From NCBI GenBank assembly GCA_038203565.1, contig JBBRDV010000006.1:1-42583 (forward strand): 42,583 bases of DNA. Reading direction: 5' to 3'. Both the position numbers and the translations under genes were made by a program. Below the pieces are notes generated by a model. It ran no database searches and was not told the origin of the DNA. It saw only the letters and a program-made list of their open reading frames with translations. Source of the DNA: Atribacterota bacterium. GTDB taxonomy: Bacteria; Atribacterota; Phoenicimicrobiia; Phoenicimicrobiales; Phoenicimicrobiaceae. Shown here piece by piece: positions 7,355 through 36,044 of the stretch. How positions within the stretch are numbered: position 1 is the stretch's first letter; each line of letters opens with the position of its first letter.

Positions 7355-7592
7355 AAATAAAAAAAGGTTTATAATTTTCTTCGCCTTGTAAAGGGACGAA
7401 AATTATTAACCTTTTCCGCGGTACCACCCTTTTTAACCTGCTTTTTATTAAGCAAATCCGTACTTTCCTCCTTATAACAGTGGAGTGCTGGCAAAACTTA
7501 CTTTTTAAAATTTCAGCCTGCAGTTCTAAAGTGAATTTCGGTTATTGCTTATCCCGGTTAAATATTAAGTTATTTATAACCTACTTATCTTT
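7355..7592 (-). ncRNA. T-box riboswitch (Phe specifier UUC) upstream of pheS
   Basis: T-box AAGGGTGGTACCGCG (7417-7431), antiterminator partner TCGTCCCTTT, U-rich terminator. Stem I has AGTA/GAA loop-E and TTC at 7533-7535. Stem II, IIA/B (CTGTTA) and III are recognisable. Confidence 0.92.
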
Positions 7593-7645
7593 ATTATAAC
7601 TTTTAACAAAATATTGTACAGATATTAATATGCATAAAAATAAAC

Positions 7646-8121: not shown

Positions 8122-8145
8122 GGATGCGATGCATCGTGCTCCTAC
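8122..8145. repeat. GTAG-type REP-like element (partial)
   Basis: CGATGCATCGTGCTCCTAC (8127-8145) is identical to 12031-12049. Confidence 0.8.
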
Positions 8146-8433: not shown

Positions 8434-8946
8434 TTATTTTGGTATTAAAACTAAAGTCATATTTCGCCCTTCTAATTTTGGTTCCTTTAAAACTTTAGCT
8501 ATTTCGTTAGTGTCTTCAATTATACGTTCTAATAATTTTCTTCCTAAATCTACATAATTCATCTCTCGCCCTTTAAACATTATAGTAATTTTTACTTGAT
8601 TACCTTCTTCTAAAAATTTGCATAAATTTTTTACCTTAAAATTGTAATCATGTTCTCCAATATTAGGGCGCATCTTTATTTCTTTCATTCCGCCGCTTTT
8701 CTGTTTCTTCTTCCCGGTCTTATTTTTTTTGTCCAGTAAGTACTTATATTTTCCGTAATCAATAATCTTACAAACCGGAGGTTTAGCTTCTGGTGAAATT
8801 TCAACTAAGTCAAGATTACTCTTTTCGGCAAGTTCAAGACCCTCCTTTTTACTTACTACCCCTACCTGTTTACCTTCAAAATCTATAAGCCTAATCTTCT
8901 CTGCTCTAATTTCTTCATTTATTCTTAACTTTGGTGTTGACTTAAT
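8434..8946 (-). CDS. infC: Translation initiation factor IF-3 (ATT start)
   Basis: The frame continues upstream of the listed ORF through RINEEIRA...PPVCKIIDYGKY. In-frame ATT at 8944-8946 lies 9 nt after GGAGG. Confidence 0.95.
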   Translation of the reverse strand: MKSTPKLRINEEIRAEKIRLIDFEGKQVGVVSKKEGLELAEKSNLDLVEISPEAKPPVCKIIDYGKYKYLLDKKNKTGKKKQKSGGMKEIKMRPNIGEHDYNFKVKNLCKFLEEGNQVKITIMFKGREMNYVDLGRKLLERIIEDTNEIAKVLKEPKLEGRNMTLVLIPK

Positions 8947-9118
8947 TCTTATTTTCCTCCTTTACACCGCTTAAAGATGAGCAATATGTCAATTTCTATA
9001 CATTTTAAATTAGTTTTTAGCTCAACTTTAAAATATCATTTTACTAATTTTAATAGATAAAAAAAATTAACTATTAAATTTCCCTAAAATATATACAAAC
9101 CTTCATTATTTTTAAAAG

Positions 9119-9147
9119 ACTATAACATATTCTTTATTTATAGTCAA
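9119..9147 (-). promoter_or_regulatory. Sigma70/SigA-type promoter for infC-rpmI-rplT
   Basis: TTGACT-17 bp-TATAGT with extended -10 TG. Confidence 0.6.
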
Positions 9148-9271: not shown

Positions 9272-11185
9272 TTAAGATAAGCTTTTTTCTTCGGCCTCTT
9301 TTAAAATATCTTCGATAAACTTGGTTAATTTTATCTTCCCTAAGTCTCCTTTTCCCCTCTTTCTTACCGAAGCAAGATCCTCTTCTACTTCCTTATCTCC
9401 GAATATCAGCATGTAGGGGATCTTTTCCATCTCAGCTTTTCTTATCTTAGCTCCAATTTTATCATTAATCTCGTCTAATTCTCCCCTTATACTATATTTA
9501 CTTAATTCATTCATTATCTTTTTGCCATACTCAATATGCCTATCAGCAATGGGCAATAATTTTACCTGAACAGGGGCTAACCACAAAGGAAATGCTCCGG
9601 CATAATTTTCAATAAGAATTCCGATAAATCTCTCCATGCTTCCCAGAACAGTTCGGTGCAGCATAACCGGTCTTTCCTTATTCCCTTCTTTATTGATATA
9701 GTAAAGATCAAATTTTTCCGGCATAATAAAATCTAACTGGAAAGTGCCGCACTGCCAGCTTCTACCTATGCAATCCTGTAAATGAAAATCTATTTTGGGA
9801 CCGTAAAATGCCCCATCACCTTCATTCACAACATAATCTATCTTTTTGTCTTTTAAGGCTTCTTCCAAACTGCTGGTAGCCTTTTCCCATATTTCATCAG
9901 AACCCATGGCATTTTCCGGTTTAGTGCTTAATTCCACACGATAGGAAAAACCAAAGGTCTTATATATCCTATCAGCCAAATCAATTACTCCTCTTATCTC
10001 ATCTTTAATCTGCTCCTGTGTCATAAATATATGAGCATCATCCTGGGTAAAAGACCTTACCCTGAAGAGTCCGTGAAGTACCCCGGATAACTCATGTCTA
10101 TGCACTAACCCTAATTCTCCCATTCTAAGCGGCAAATCTCTATAACTGTGAAGGGTAGTTTTGTAAATTAAAATTCCTCCGGGACAATTCATCGGTTTAA
10201 TAGCATAATCTTCCTCATCTATCCTGGTAAAATACATATTTTCCTTATAATGATCCCAATGTCCGGATTTCACCCATAATGATTTATTTAAGATAATCGG
10301 AGTTTTGACTTCTGTATAACCACTCTTACAATGTTCTTCTCTCCAGTAATCCTCCAGGATATTTCTTAACACCATCCCTTTCGGATGAAAGAAAGGGAAA
10401 CCAACTCCCTCATCATGAAAGCTGAATAAATCTAAATCTTTTCCCAATTTTCGATGGTCTCTCTTTTTTGCTTCTTCAATTAATTTCAAATAATTATCCA
10501 GTTCGGATTTTTTATCGAACGAGGTTCCGTAAATACGCTGCAGCATCTTATTTTTTTCATTTCCCCTCCAGTATGCTCCGGCAATACTTAAAAGTTTAAA
10601 AGCTTTTAACTTCCCGGTAGAAGGAATGTGCGGGCCTCTACATAAATCAACAAAATCCCCCTGCTGATACAAGGTAACCATATCATCTTCTATATCCTTA
10701 AGGAGTTCTGTTTTATAATCTTCTTCTTGTTCTTTAAATAATTTTTTAGCATCTTTTTTACTTATCTCTGTCCTTATTAAAGGAAGATTTCTACCTACTA
10801 TCTCTTTCATCTTTTTCTCAATAAGTACTATATCCTCCGGAGTAAAGGAACGGTTTAAATCAAAATCATAATAGAAGCCATCCTTAATGGCTGGTCCAAT
10901 GGCCAGTTTTACCTGGGGGAATAATTCCTTTACCGCCTGAGCCATAATATGTGAACTGCTATGATGATAAATTTCTCCGCCTTCAGGTGAGGCAAAAGTT
11001 ATAATCTCAATCCGGTCATTATCCTTAAGAGCATAATTCAAATCCTTTTCCACTCCGTTTACTACACCGGCAATTGCCTCTTTGCCTAATTTTTGGCTTA
11101 TTTTGACAGCAGCATCGTATAAAGTAGCTCCTTTATTCAATTTTATTTCCGAACCATCTAATAAAACAACTTTAATATTTGACAT
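9272..11185 (-). CDS. thrS: Threonine--tRNA ligase
   Basis: TGS domain, DLCRGPH, KPMNCP, GAFYGPKID. Probable start is the ATG at 11185 after AAGGAGGT. Confidence 0.98.
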   Translation of the reverse strand: MSNIKVVLLDGSEIKLNKGATLYDAAVKISQKLGKEAIAGVVNGVEKDLNYALKDNDRIEIITFASPEGGEIYHHSSSHIMAQAVKELFPQVKLAIGPAIKDGFYYDFDLNRSFTPEDIVLIEKKMKEIVGRNLPLIRTEISKKDAKKLFKEQEEDYKTELLKDIEDDMVTLYQQGDFVDLCRGPHIPSTGKLKAFKLLSIAGAYWRGNEKNKMLQRIYGTSFDKKSELDNYLKLIEEAKKRDHRKLGKDLDLFSFHDEGVGFPFFHPKGMVLRNILEDYWREEHCKSGYTEVKTPIILNKSLWVKSGHWDHYKENMYFTRIDEEDYAIKPMNCPGGILIYKTTLHSYRDLPLRMGELGLVHRHELSGVLHGLFRVRSFTQDDAHIFMTQEQIKDEIRGVIDLADRIYKTFGFSYRVELSTKPENAMGSDEIWEKATSSLEEALKDKKIDYVVNEGDGAFYGPKIDFHLQDCIGRSWQCGTFQLDFIMPEKFDLYYINKEGNKERPVMLHRTVLGSMERFIGILIENYAGAFPLWLAPVQVKLLPIADRHIEYGKKIMNELSKYSIRGELDEINDKIGAKIRKAEMEKIPYMLIFGDKEVEEDLASVRKRGKGDLGKIKLTKFIEDILKEAEEKSLS

Positions 11186-11206
11186 AATACCTACCTCCTT
11201 ATAATT

Positions 11207-11280
11207 AAACAAAAAACTTCTTGTCCTGTATCAGAAAAGGACGAGAAGTTTAATTTAATAATCTCGCGGTTCCACCTACT
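11207..11280 (-). ncRNA. T-box antiterminator/terminator module upstream of thrS (no Stem I found)
   Basis: AGG-TGGAACC-GCGAGA...TCTCGT-CCT antiterminator. Overlapping terminator AAACTTCTCGTCCT/AGGACAAGAAGTTT plus U tract. Confidence 0.85.
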
Positions 11281-11319
11281 GTTTTCCACGCAATCTTATT
11301 TTATCTTTTGATTTTGAAA

Positions 11320-11394
11320 TGGTGGGCGGTACTGGATTCGAACCAGTGACTTCTTGCGCGTCGAGCAAGCATTCTACCGCTGAATTAACCGCCC
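11320..11394 (-). tRNA. tRNA-Val(GAC)
   Basis: Cloverleaf with encoded CCA; anticodon arm CTTGC-TCGACGC-GCAAG. Confidence 0.93.
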
Positions 11395-11431
11395 ATTCTC
11401 TTTAGACTTTTAATCGTCACTCAAAATTAAA

Positions 11432-11505
11432 TGGAGGCGGCACTCGGATTCGAACCGAGGATGAAGGATTTGCAGTCCTCTGCCTTACCACTTGGCGATG
11501 CCGCC
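11432..11505 (-). tRNA. tRNA-Cys(GCA)
   Basis: GGCGGCATCGCCAAGTGG...CTGCAAA...TCCA. Confidence 0.97.
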
Positions 11506-11525
11506 ATATTTAATTTTTATATAAA

Positions 11526-11600
11526 TGGAGCGGAAAACGGGATTTGAACCCGCGACCCTCGCCTTGGCAAGGCGATGCTCTACCACTGAGCTATTTCCGC
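11526..11600 (-). tRNA. tRNA-Gly(GCC)
   Basis: GCGGAAATAGCTCAGTGG...TTGCCAA...TCCA. Confidence 0.97.
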
Positions 11601-11608
11601 AATAAACC

Positions 11609-11684
11609 TGGTGCCGAGACCCAGAATTGAACTGGGGACACGTGGATTTTCAGTCCACTGCTCTACCGACTGAGCTATCTCGGC
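11609..11684 (-). tRNA. tRNA-Phe(GAA)
   Basis: GCCGAGATAGCTCAG...CTGAAAA...ACCA. Confidence 0.97.
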
Positions 11685-11728
11685 ATTTATATTTATAATC
11701 GCCTTACATAATAATATTATTAAAAAAA

Positions 11729-11807
11729 TGGCGGGGCCGACGAGATTTGAACTCGCGATCTCCTGCGTGACAGGCAGGCGTGTTAAACCAAGCTGCACTA
11801 CGGCCCC
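11729..11807 (-). tRNA. tRNA-Asp(GTC)
   Basis: GGGGCCGTAGTGCAG...CTGTCAC...GCCA. Confidence 0.97.
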
Positions 11808-11828
11808 TTTATGTTTTTATTAAAAAAT

Positions 11829-11904
11829 TGGTAGGCGGAACAGGGCTTGAACCTGTGACCCCTGGCTTGTAAAACCAGTGCTCTCCCAACTGAGCTACCC
11901 GCCC
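11829..11904 (-). tRNA. tRNA-Val(TAC)
   Basis: GGGCGGGTAGCTCAG...TTTACAA...ACCA. Confidence 0.97.
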
Positions 11905-11933
11905 ACTTATTTCTTTTTTTCTATGCAAGTGAT

Positions 11934-11962
11934 ATTATAACATCTCTCTTTTTCTTTGTCTA
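11934..11962 (-). promoter_or_regulatory. Sigma70/SigA-type promoter of the tRNA-thrS transcript
   Basis: TAGACA-17 bp-TATAAT with extended -10 TG, about 30 bp upstream of the first tRNA. Confidence 0.75.
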
Positions 11963-12020
11963 TAATAATATTAGCATAATATTTAGTAATTTTGCAAATT
12001 TTAGTTTAACTAAAAAGTAG

Positions 12021-12050
12021 TGTAGGAGCACGATGCATCGTGCTCCTACA
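12021..12050. repeat. Perfect 30-bp palindrome, GTAG-type REP-like
   Basis: TGTAGGAGCACGATG|CATCGTGCTCCTACA. Confidence 0.9.
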
Positions 12051-12134
12051 AGTTAATTATTATTGTGGATAGACAACAAAGTTTACCCCTACTAATTTAA
12101 CTACTATATTTATTCTTCTTCACTATATACTAAT

Positions 12135-12581
12135 TTAAAATGGAATATCGTCTTCTGATATTGAGGTATCTTCATTTAATGGTTCATCAGAAACATTTTC
12201 TTCGCTCTTTGCGGGACCTTCTTTTGCAGCACCTGCATCTTTCACTAAATCTAAAAATTGTACAGTTCTGGCGTTAATTTCAAAAGAAGTTCTCTTGTTT
12301 CCTTCTTTATCCTGCCAATCATTAGACCTTAATTCACCACTTATAGCCACCCTTCTGCCTTTTTTTAAAAACTGTGAAACATTTTCTGCCTGCTTACCCC
12401 AGGTTGTTACATTTATAAAGAGAACTTCTTCAATGTTATTTCCTTCCTGATTTCGATACGTTCTGTTTATGGCAATGCCAAACTTACATACCCCTGTCCC
12501 GCCTGGTGTATACCTTAGTTCCGGGTCTCTGGTTAATCTGCCGATACCGATAAAACTATTTAAATCGCCAAAAGTAGCCAT
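12135..12581 (-). CDS. ssb: Single-stranded DNA-binding protein
   Basis: GRLTRDPELRYTP and C-terminal DDIPF; ATG at 12581 after AAGGAGG. Confidence 0.97.
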   Translation of the reverse strand: MATFGDLNSFIGIGRLTRDPELRYTPGGTGVCKFGIAINRTYRNQEGNNIEEVLFINVTTWGKQAENVSQFLKKGRRVAISGELRSNDWQDKEGNKRTSFEINARTVQFLDLVKDAGAAKEGPAKSEENVSDEPLNEDTSISEDDIPF

Positions 12582-12624
12582 AAAAATATTTCCTCCTTTT
12601 ATTGTTTTTTGATAATTTTTATAA

Positions 12625-12649
12625 CGGGGTTGATGAATCAAACCCCTAC
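12625..12649. repeat. GTAG-type REP-like hairpin
   Basis: Reads GTAGGGGTTTGATTCATCAACCCCG on the minus strand; a 14-nt core recurs at 39321-39334. Confidence 0.7.
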
Positions 12650-12660
12650 CTTTATTTTAT

Positions 12661-15162
12661 TTATTTTACCACAATATTTACCAGTTTCCCAGAAACAACA
12701 ATAACTTTTATAATCTTTTTGCCTTTAATTTTTTCTTGCATTTTTGGCAGAGAAAGTGCTTCCTCTTTTATTTTCTCATCATCGTAAAATGCAGGAACTG
12801 TCAATTTCCCTCTTAGTTTTCCATTTATCTGGACTATAATTAGCTTTTCCTCTTCTTCTAACATCTTCTTATCATACTTAGGCCAGGGCTGCATATAAAT
12901 GCTTTCTTTGTTCCCCATCTCCTGCCATAGCTCTTCTGAAAAATGAGGAGCGATAGGACCTAAAAGCCTGACTATCATTTCCAAAGCCTCTTTTAAAATA
13001 AATACATCTCCTTCTTTCCCCTGTTTTTCTTCTGTTTCTAACTGAAATTTGTATACTTCATTGACTAATTCCATAATGGCACTAATGGCGGTATTAAAGT
13101 GAAATCTTTCTTCGATATTTTCGGTAACTTTTTTAATGGTTTGGTGGGTCTTCTGCCTTATTTTTTTAGCTTCCACACTTATATCTTCCGGGGAAACTTC
13201 TTCTTTATTTTTCGGCTTTTTAAAATAACCAATATTATTGTAGATTAACCGCCAAACTCGATTCAAGAATCGAGATGCTCCATCCATCCCTTTATCCGTC
13301 CATTCCATATCTACTTCCGGAGGACCGGCAAACAGCATCATTACCCTGGTAGCATCGATACCGAATTTTAAAAATATTTTTCCCGGATTAACTATGTTAC
13401 CTTTTGATTTAGACATCGCTGCCCCATCTTTGCAGACCATCCCCTGAGTAAAGAGCCTTTTGAAGGGTTCTTTAAAATTGACATATTTCAAATCATATAG
13501 AACTTTCGTAAAAAACCGAGAATATAGTAAATGCAGTATGGCGTGCTCTACTCCACCGATATACTGGTCTACCGGCATCCAATATCTTAATTCCTCAGCA
13601 TCAAATGGCGCCGTAACAGTTTTAGGAGAACAAAATCTAAGGTAGTACCAGGAAGAACAAACAAAAGTATCCATAGTATCTGTTTCTCTTTTAGCTTCTT
13701 TACCGCATTTTGGACAAATTGTATTGACAAAGTCTTTGCTACTTGCCAGTGGTGACATACCTTTAGGCCTGAAATCAACATCTTCCGGCAGCAAAACCGG
13801 TAAATCACTTTCAGGTACGGGAACCATACCACAGTCGGAACAGTAAATCATAGGAATAGGTGCACCCCAATAACGCTGACGCGAAATAAGCCAATCTCTT
13901 AATCTAAAATTGACCTCTTTCTCCCCAGAGCCTTTTTCAATCAAATAATCAATTATAACATCCAATGACTTACTGCTTGGTAATCCGTCAAATCGGCCGG
14001 AATTAACCATAATGCCTTCTCCGTCAAAAGCAGCCTCCATTGTATCAGAGGTAAATTTTTTATCCTTTGGCTGAATAACTATTCTTATAGGTAAATCATA
14101 TTTTTTAGCAAACTCGAAATCCCTTTGGTCATGAGCCGGAACTGCCATTACCGCACCTGTTCCATAATCCATTAACACATAATTTGCTAACCAGATGGGG
14201 ATTTCCTCGTTATTAATAGGATTTATCGCATATTTACCGGTAAAGCATCCCATTTTTTCCATTACCCCTGATAGCCTATCTATAGTACTCTCTTTGCTTA
14301 CTTCTTCTTGGAAACTCTTAATTTTATCTTTATAAGGGGAATCTTTTATTATCTCTTCTACTAAAGGGTGTTCGGGAGATAATAGAAAATAAGTTGCTCC
14401 ATAGAGAGTGTCGGGTCGGGTAGTAAAAACCGGAATAGTTTTATCACTCCCTTTTATGGGAAATTCAATCCTTGCTCCCTCGCTCCTGCCTATCCAATTT
14501 CTCTGCATAGTTAATACTTTTTCTGGCCATTCCTCTAAGCATTCTATATCATCGAGTAACCTCTGGGCATATTCGGTAATCTTGAAAAACCATTGGGACA
14601 ACTCTTTTTTAACAACTTCAGTATCACACCTCCAACATTTTCCGTCTATTACTTGTTCATTAGCTAATACTACATTACAGGAAGGACACCAGTTAACTAC
14701 TGCTTTTTTCTTGTAAGCTAATCCTTTTTTGTATAACTGTAAAAACATCCACTGAGTCCACTTGTAGTAATCCGGATCACAGGTGGCTATTTCTCTATCC
14801 CAATCATAACTGATACTCATATTGGTTAGGGTATTTTTCATCTTTTGAATATTGGTTTTAGTCCAGATTGAAGGATGAATTTTATTTTTTATAGCAGCAT
14901 TCTCCGCAGGTAAACCAAAGGCATCCCAACCCATGGGGTGCAGGATATTATATCCTTGAGAATGTTTGTATCTGGCCACTACATCACCGATAACGTAGTT
15001 TTTCACATGTCCCATGTGGGGTTCACCCGAAGGATAGGGGAACATTTCCAAAACATAATATTTCGGTTTTTTATAATCGACATAAGATTTAAAAAAATTA
15101 TTTTTTACCCAATATTCTCGCCTTTTTTTTTCGACTTCACTAAAATTATATCTATCTTCCAT
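12661..15162 (-). CDS. leuS: Leucine--tRNA ligase
   Basis: MFPYPSG, HMGH, TTRPDT editing domain, [12 protein letters not shown]. Confidence 0.98.
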
Positions 15163-15180: not shown

Positions 15181-15532
15181 AAAAATAAAAATCCCGCCTC
15201 AAGTAATTAATTAAATTATTACCAGGGACGAGATTCTTCTCGTGGTACCACCCTTGTTCAGTAGATTTTATACATTATAATTTGGTGGAGCTGGCGGGAA
15301 TCGAACCCGCGACCTCCTCCACGCCAAGGAGGCGCGCTCCCGACTGCGCTACAGCCCCACATTATCTACTCTTATTAAACAATTAACGCTTGTCAACGTT
15401 GTAAATTTTATTTAAATCAATATTTTTGATTTAATTTTTCGCTTACAAAACTTGAAGGTGAGTTTAAAGGTTTTTATCAGCTTTCACCAGATGCCGATTC
15501 TCTTTTTACGAATATACCTTTCAATCCTTCGC
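15181..15532 (-). ncRNA. T-box riboswitch (Leu specifier CUC) upstream of leuS, containing a tRNA in Stem III
   Basis: Stem I helices GAAGG/CCTTC and AAAGGT/ACCTTT, AGAGA bulge (15499-15503), GGTGAAAG apical loop (15481-15488), CTC at 15460-15462. T-box AAGGGTGGTACCACG (15241-15255), then terminator and U tract. Confidence 0.92.
15283..15358 (-). tRNA. tRNA-Ala(GGC)
   Basis: Complete 76-nt cloverleaf with G3:U70 Ala identity pair, loop TTGGCGT and encoded ACCA. Confidence 0.97.
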
Positions 15533-15561
15533 TCGGTCTTTTTCTTTCTCAGTTCGTTTTT

Positions 15562-27157: not shown

Positions 27158-27278
27158 TAGCAGCGGACGCGATGACCTGCCGCAGGACTAAAGAATTTCC
27201 CAATAGAAAACCTTAATCCTTTCGTTTAGAGACAACGTCCCATTCTCTAACACTTAACGCAAGTCACCTACTCTTGCC
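27158..27278 (-). ncRNA. THF riboswitch
   Basis: AGAGTAGG...GCGTTAAGTG...GGGACGTTG...ACGAAAG...TGCGG...CGCGTCCGCTG upstream of folT. Confidence 0.9.
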
Positions 27279-35954: not shown

Positions 35955-36044
35955 CCTCCGTTCTAGTTCCCTCATAAGATACTAGACGAAATACTATTAA
36001 TTTTATTTACTCTTGGTCTTGTTCTCATGCAAGATACAAGCTCT
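35955..36044 (-). ncRNA. pan RNA motif (two bulged hairpins) in the panT leader
   Basis: CTTGTATC...GAACAAG and CGTCTAGTATC...GAACTAGAACG; the second hairpin abuts or overlaps the SD. Confidence 0.7.

Follow-up and report, generated by a model that had tools for sequence, protein, structure and literature searches.

A thrS leader in an Atribacterota genome that appears to be a deletion derivative of an ordinary threonine T-box

How an essential threonine-tRNA ligase gene is expressed from behind a T-box antiterminator and terminator that have no anticodon-reading half is the question raised by the thrS locus of an Atribacterota genome (GenBank assembly GCA_038203565.1), which lies in a 42,583-nt stretch of contig JBBRDV010000006.1 that was analysed as a whole (hereafter, the window). 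All of the elements of the leader (promoter, tRNAs, antiterminator, terminator, Shine-Dalgarno, and thrS) are located on the minus strand of the window. A predicted sigma-70-type promoter for the tRNA operon (11934..11962; TAGACA-17-TATAAT, with an extended -10, TG-N-TATAAT) matched the consensus at 11 of 12 positions, was the top-scoring site in a consensus scan of positions 9500-14500, and has the same motif in 35/35 loci with a tRNA-Val(TAC) upstream of thrS (33 genomes, including the window's own). Six tRNA calls follow, tRNA-Val(TAC) (11829..11904), tRNA-Asp(GTC) (11729..11807), tRNA-Phe(GAA) (11609..11684), tRNA-Gly(GCC) (11526..11600; 3' end UCCA), tRNA-Cys(GCA) (11432..11505; 3' end UCCA), and tRNA-Val(GAC) (11320..11394) as the final gene of the operon, with spacers of 21, 44, 8, 20, and 37 nt between them (11904-11320). 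The relic antiterminator (11238..11277; helix A1, the 7-nt bulge UGGAACC at 11274-11268, and helix A2), recognized by Rfam and folding, has its bulge beginning 45 nt past the last tRNA, and is overlapped by an intrinsic terminator (11207..11251; one C-A mismatch, a 10-nt loop, and a 6-U tract) that is probably also the end of the tRNA-operon transcript. Only ~7-10 nt separate the U-tract from the Shine-Dalgarno of thrS (11193..11200), and thrS itself (9272..11185, ATG at 11185; TIGR00418, 756 bits against a cut-off of 384) is present as a single full-length copy, with no second thrS found in a search of the assembly (99%-complete genome, 218 contigs). The order of elements and the 8-44 nt tRNA spacers given by an earlier sequence-only reading of this DNA agree with these coordinates.

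The final tRNA of the operon, tRNA-Val(GAC) (11320-11394, minus strand), carries C33 in place of the near-universal U33 (loop UCGACGC). It is the sole C33 tRNA in the genome's tRNA listing as read; C33 also occurs at this position in a related genome, G001 (discussed below), while two loci of a second family (f2) for which the loop was printed have U33.

The sensor half of the T-box is absent. At thrS, the Rfam T-box model (RF00230) matched over model positions 188-215 only (14.9 bits, E 9.2), while full-length matches were found at leuS and pheS within the same window, and neither Rfam nor alignment placed a Stem I with a specifier codon in the thrS leader. The earlier report that thrS has no Stem I was borne out by Rfam, folding, and alignment alike: no cryptic Stem I, with or without a Thr specifier, was detected by Rfam in the tRNA spacers or before the first tRNA, or by folding of the leader after the last tRNA, and no RF00230 match occurred between ssb and the antiterminator. 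A displaced sensor was not found elsewhere in the assembly: an nhmmer profile built from the 24 intact segments had no match better than E 4.9, and blastn against the assembly returned only two short AT-rich matches (27 and 49 nt). Likewise, the 45 nt before the bulge contain no small codon-displaying hairpin, and no relative has the same leader.

What has been lost, and from where, becomes clear when the window is aligned to its congeners. Relative to 15 congeners, 193-197 nt are absent, corresponding to the rest of Stem I with its specifier ACC, Stem II, Stem IIA/B, and Stem III; the alignment runs through the AGUAG motif and then resumes at the bulge, such that the 5' strand of Stem I directly abuts the bulge. 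This remnant of the Stem I base, its 5' strand together with the AGUAG motif (11275..11291, minus strand), was overlooked by the sequence-only reading. It aligns base for base to the congener leaders, with one A-to-G difference from most of them, and in those congeners its counterpart forms 6-10 bp with the strand that follows the specifier. The breakpoint itself (11274..11277) is a microhomology of 3-4 nt, AGG(T). Also lost in the window and kept in the congeners are Stem III and its flanking purine string, and the residual 42 nt before the antiterminator fold at -1.4 kcal/mol, whereas five intact leaders have -9 to -13 kcal/mol over their Stem III region.

Comparison of thrS leaders across the class (52 genomes) identified the intact form of this leader within the window's family (f1). 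Of the 30 f1 genomes, 26 have the whole leader in view, three have no match to the 5' end of thrS, and one (G009) has a leader visible for 133 nt only, which includes part of Stem III. The tRNA operon, as far as contigs reach, and a complete Thr T-box occur together in 24/26 of these leaders (15 congeners and 9 loci from other genera). Full-length RF00230 matches were obtained for all 14 congener loci scanned (58-84 bits, E<=6e-10, under the gathering score of 93) and for all nine loci from the six other genera (68-87 bits), while the fifteenth congener, excluded from the Rfam scan by size, aligns throughout with the other intact leaders. All 24 intact leaders have a Thr codon (ACC, n = 23; ACU, n = 1) immediately ahead of the 3' strand of the Stem I base; the count was not blind, as the script sought ACN, though the column is plain in the alignment, and the base of Stem I shows compensatory changes across genera. 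Four loci recovered from JGI metagenomes by a flank motif were all intact and all from other species (88-95% identical), in a scan that may omit the window's own species. The intact f1 T-boxes too lie at the end of the tRNA operon, and no promoter of their own was found. One f1 genome, G005 (L016), has an operon that lacks tRNA-Asp and a T-box that is intact.

Because relatives possess the same operon together with a full T-box, the thrS leader of the window is taken to descend from an ordinary threonine T-box by deletion, and its colinear flanks and clean junction against intact orthologues identify it, at the level of alignment, as a degenerate relic of the f1 Thr T-box. The decapitation of the riboswitch is recent. 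In the sequence-only reading, a tRNA operon was held to have replaced the sensor half; in relatives the operon and full T-box stand side by side, and the operon therefore predates the loss of the sensor and replaced nothing. The same evidence bears on the proposals that a co-transcribed tRNA serves as a surrogate Stem I or that the operon was inserted in place of the sensor. The last tRNA does end just 45 nt before the bulge, and a tRNA is truly nested in the nearby leuS T-box, but the operon precedes a complete T-box in 24/26 f1 leaders and, across the phylum, also precedes leaders that have no T-box, none of the anticodon loops of the six tRNAs holds a Thr codon, and at leuS the T-box has retained a Stem I of its own, with CUC as specifier. 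Both forms of the proposal, of which the surrogate was put forward in the earlier reading, are thus left with next to no probability.

A deletion at a short repeat could also be produced by a chimeric read or a mis-join, and the sequence-only reading had flagged positions 11280-11320 for a possible misassembly. The junction is no misassembly. Logan contigs from 4/4 sequencing runs (X1-X4, from two studies) span the junction at 11274-11277 without gaps: X1 with a contig of 882 nt (0 differences, depth 13.7), X2 with 513 nt (1 difference, depth 76.6), X3 with 138 nt (0 differences, depth 6), and X4 with 966 nt (4 differences, depth 12.8). This evidence consists of assembled contigs and not raw reads, with X1 possibly the source sample and X2-X4 belonging to one study. 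Less similar contigs in X2-X4 cease to match at 11277, 11277, and 11269, which is what contigs of an intact congener would do. The deleted allele is common to slightly different strains; a rare intact allele may be present in these samples, as the contig matches listed omit 137 loose ends and 303 pieces. An assembly artefact would be in keeping with an assembly of 218 contigs and with the microhomology at the junction, but the repeat of 3-4 nt is far shorter than assembler word sizes, and separately assembled contigs from four runs and two studies, some with other single-base differences, cross the junction gap-free while the less similar contigs stop at or near it. Loss of the sensor through misassembly is therefore extremely improbable.

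In a second f1 genome, G001, the thrS leader (C7, before 27477; L113 / L059) matches that of the window in one piece, but here some 180 nt have been lost by another deletion, with a 9-nt microhomology. This deletion takes the specifier, the whole bulge, and the 5' arm of the antiterminator, spares a longer 5' portion of Stem I, and leaves the terminator in place with one G-C pair changed to G-U. The deletions in the window and G001 are non-nested, each leader having kept bases that are missing from the other, and neither deletion derives from the other; their independence rests on this non-nesting and not on a tree. In a leuS tree, G001 is sister to the window's genome (97.8% identical, 95% support), while a shorter alignment (ssb, the tRNA operon, and 5' thrS) that yields a poorly resolved tree groups G001 with the intact G002 (99%). 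Judged by these sequences, G001 is probably a sister species of the window's genome; its deletion is known from the assembly alone, and its thrS is truncated by the contig end. Two losses in probable sister species may reflect relaxed or reversed selection in their ancestor.

In the window, the antiterminator that survives the deletion has A1, A2, and the 7-nt bulge UGGAACC expected of a T-box, and it is mutually exclusive with the terminator through the CUCGUCC strand (-11.6 to -13.4 kcal/mol for the terminator against -8.1 kcal/mol for the antiterminator). The terminator is unchanged relative to congeners, in which the antiterminator folds at -9.3 kcal/mol; stabilization of the ON state by the deletion was considered and not seen, and on these predictions the deletion brings no gain in readthrough. 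The junction does offer a possible 3-bp extension of the antiterminator (11281-11279 with 11234-11232), and helix A2 is predicted to form in a paused transcript without tRNA (p 0.95). Among the nine T-box terminators in the genome, that of thrS is predicted to be the weakest (-13.4 against -14.6 to -22.3 kcal/mol), and its margin over the antiterminator is 5.3, compared to 9-14 for seven others and 4.7 for leuS, margins that are rough, as some automatic antiterminator folds are incomplete and folding energies predict termination only roughly.

Could this remaining unit sense tRNA without a specifier? In such a scheme, the orphan antiterminator would capture uncharged U73 tRNAs in general (Thr, Gly, or Cys) by their UCCA ends, those of its own transcript included. 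The bulge and both helices are unaltered and still fold, with the possible 3-bp extension at the junction, tRNAs of all three specificities end in UCCA, and the deleted allele is common to slightly different strains. A related conjecture, itself a long shot, is that the deletion created a broad starvation sensor in one step, with the junction-extended antiterminator aided by a locally high level of tRNAs released from its own transcript. The sequence-only reading had pointed to the UCCA ends of the co-transcribed tRNA-Gly and tRNA-Cys, and these are indeed present, yet both tRNA-Thr of the genome end in the same way. Because both do so, the UGGA bulge is the cognate threonine bulge and needs no new partner. 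Nor does its conservation indicate a new role. Based on fourfold-site divergence to the nearest relatives, the chance of 12 nt remaining unchanged under neutrality is 0.2-0.7 or higher, and because the test lacks power in this range, an unchanged bulge is no sign of selection; the bulge would seem to be conserved through recent inheritance. Sensing of this kind is further opposed by the loss of Stem III and the purine string, with a residual 42 nt that fold at only -1.4 kcal/mol, by the absence of any bulge in G001, and by a review, in which an antiterminator without Stem III has no appreciable tRNA binding (PMC7583486). The same review considers Stem I obligate (PMC7583486), and a second paper calls both of the tRNA-T-box pairings necessary (PMC4695836). 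Specifier-independent sensing is therefore very unlikely.

The best-supported of the three options raised by the sequence-only reading is simple leakage. The leader is read as a relic T-box whose remaining terminator likely lets a fixed share of transcripts leak into thrS irrespective of tRNA, a reading with a probability of roughly 75%. That thrS depends on readthrough would follow, as the earlier reading had it, from the lack of a Stem I and of a promoter after the terminator: the ~7-10 nt between the U-tract and the Shine-Dalgarno leave no room for one and hold no consensus site. In the proposed mechanism, polymerase would start at the tRNA-operon promoter, transcribe the six tRNAs, and mostly stop at the terminator, which would double as the end of the tRNA operon. 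Some transcripts would read through, aided by the weak hairpin and by the antiterminator folding first, since an early A2 would delay the terminator. tRNA operons are transcribed far above the need of a synthetase mRNA, and because of this the fraction reading through would suffice for thrS. Expression of thrS would then track the tRNA promoter without a response to uncharged tRNA-Thr, and its output could, according to this model, be lower than in an induced relative. A tRNA-independent readthrough also occurs in in vitro T-box assays, where it is subtracted (PMC4695836). As infC-rpmI-rplT downstream of thrS has a promoter-like site of its own, only thrS would depend on the leak. This site, TTGACT-17-TATAGT, is located past thrS at about 9118-9146 (minus strand). 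An infC-like frame at 8435-8960 is absent from the ORFs of >=90 aa with an ATG, GTG, or TTG near a Shine-Dalgarno, which suggests a non-standard start codon.

Rather than by leakage, thrS could be supplied by a non-consensus promoter in the last tRNA or the leader, or by protein-assisted antitermination of the stable-RNA transcript. The outgroup sample comprised 11 loci from 26 outgroup genomes with a match, of which nine have Asp-Phe-Gly-Cys-Val(GAC), then a plain G+C-rich terminator, and then thrS (in the other two the tRNA cluster was not seen), with no Rfam T-box in any of the 11. Six of the nine have only ~20-35 nt between the U-run and the start codon, too little for a promoter, while the remaining three leaders, at 120-150 nt, could hold one. 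Leaders from the other class of the phylum (L125-L127 and L130-L132) carry a strong G+C-rich terminator ~20-35 nt before the thrS start. In several outgroups the terminator is strong (about -18 to -25 kcal/mol, computed for the whole short leader), and pure leakage is hard to square with such terminators because they sit only 20-35 nt before the thrS start. To our knowledge, the promoters and elongation factors of the Atribacterota have been little studied, which also counts in favour of an alternative supply. Against it, within the window, a consensus scan found no sigma-70-like minus-strand site between 11934 and thrS, the gap from the U-tract to the Shine-Dalgarno is a mere ~7-10 nt, and no boxA-like motif occurs in the operon or leader; matches to the boxA-like consensus numbered 3 against 1.6 expected, a chance level, and all were inside thrS. 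A supply of thrS by such means is rather unlikely, and leakage is retained as the preferred reading.

A further set of T-box-free leaders occurs in family f2, where the bulge is missing from 16/16 thrS leaders (counting genomes whose contigs reach the 5' end of thrS) and no Rfam T-box was present at thrS where scanned; these genomes have 8-15 T-box matches elsewhere. Directly before the Shine-Dalgarno, the f2 leaders share a short hairpin (-7 to -11 kcal/mol), conserved among them, and a U-rich run. The stem sequence is strongly conserved, CUCAUG...CGUGAG with a U-G pair, in 16/16 genomes (L025-L032, L103-L110, L112). By eye, several f2 leaders have an upstream AUGAG able to pair with the 5' arm of the hairpin, and many of the hairpin loops hold a Thr-anticodon-like NGU. 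This hairpin could be an undescribed attenuator or ThrRS operator, and both f2 and outgroup leaders may be under other controls. A leader peptide with Thr codons was also considered for f2 and set aside, since inspection by eye showed neither a consistent start nor a consistent frame.

By parsimony, we infer that the operon-terminator-thrS arrangement is old, that f1 gained a T-box, and that two species separately lost its function. The thrS leader is in this sense a natural gain-and-loss experiment on a riboswitch at an essential gene, and not a new sensor, with a series that runs from a plain terminator (outgroups) through a full Thr T-box (f1) to two separate deletions, one with the bulge and one without. 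The series suggests that, where a T-box closes a strongly transcribed tRNA operon, leakage can supply thrS well enough for the T-box to be dispensable, and it provides natural templates for measuring the share of an isolated antiterminator in basal readthrough. It also carries a caution that an 'intact but headless' T-box needs comparison with congeners before a new mechanism is proposed.

Several other elements were observed in the window. The leuS T-box (15221-15543, minus strand; specifier CUC) holds a complete tRNA-Ala(GGC) at 15283-15358 in its Stem III loop, and the same arrangement occurs in 11/11 relative loci that reach the leuS leader, from both families. The pheS T-box (7389-7606) has a shortened Stem I apex, a THF riboswitch is located at 27159-27278, and a pan motif at 35955-36043 (minus strand). 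A perfect 13-bp palindrome occurs after ssb (12021-12050), with a partial copy between rpmI and rplT (~8125-8145); the palindrome-bearing stretch after ssb is highly variable among congeners and looks REP-like.

Among known systems, the closest is the class I transcriptional thrS T-box (RF00230; the Bacillus subtilis thrS/tyrS type), which has the same antiterminator and overlapping terminator before thrS. It is intact in 24 members of the family; the UGGA of the window fits the U73 of its genome's tRNA-Thr, and the alignment shows direct descent. The window differs in the absence of the specifier, most of Stem I, and Stems II, IIA/B, and III, so that the anticodon cannot be read; with two defining features of a T-box missing, the leader is not classed as a functional class I T-box. 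In the literature searched, with most subscription papers and supplements outside its scope, no paper on Atribacterota T-boxes was found, nor, in the parts of sources available, a description of a natural sensor-deleted thrS T-box.

T-boxes in which a single Stem I is accompanied by an additional antiterminator-terminator unit are reportedly known as partially duplicated or 'single-specifier tandem' T-boxes (Vitreschak 2008; Gutierrez-Preciado 2009). In those systems the extra unit, which likewise lacks its own Stem I, lies behind a complete T-box, whereas upstream of the thrS unit there is no Stem I at all. Elsewhere in the genome, extra antiterminator modules without their own Stem I occur ~100-140 nt downstream of full T-boxes (G000:C8:19188 and G000:C144:2811, both minus strand), and these candidates resemble the partially duplicated T-boxes. 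T-boxes with a compact or ultrashort Stem I (actinobacterial ileS; PMC7583486) likewise lack a full RF00230 match and have little sequence before the antiterminator; they keep a codon-bearing hairpin across many species, while the window has no such hairpin and its state is private to one species. The parallel that the sequence-only reading drew with the tRNA-containing leuS T-box did not hold: leuS has a complete Stem I of its own upstream, with the arms of Stem III flanking a nested tRNA, whereas at thrS only a promoter precedes the first tRNA and no tRNA is nested. The remaining comparison is with the plain tRNA operon-terminator-thrS arrangement of f2 and the other class, in which this tRNA cluster is followed by a terminator-like hairpin and, shortly after it, thrS, with no T-box. 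The hairpins there differ in sequence and have no bulge, and the window reached such a state secondarily, by deletion, but it is most likely like this plain arrangement that its leader works.
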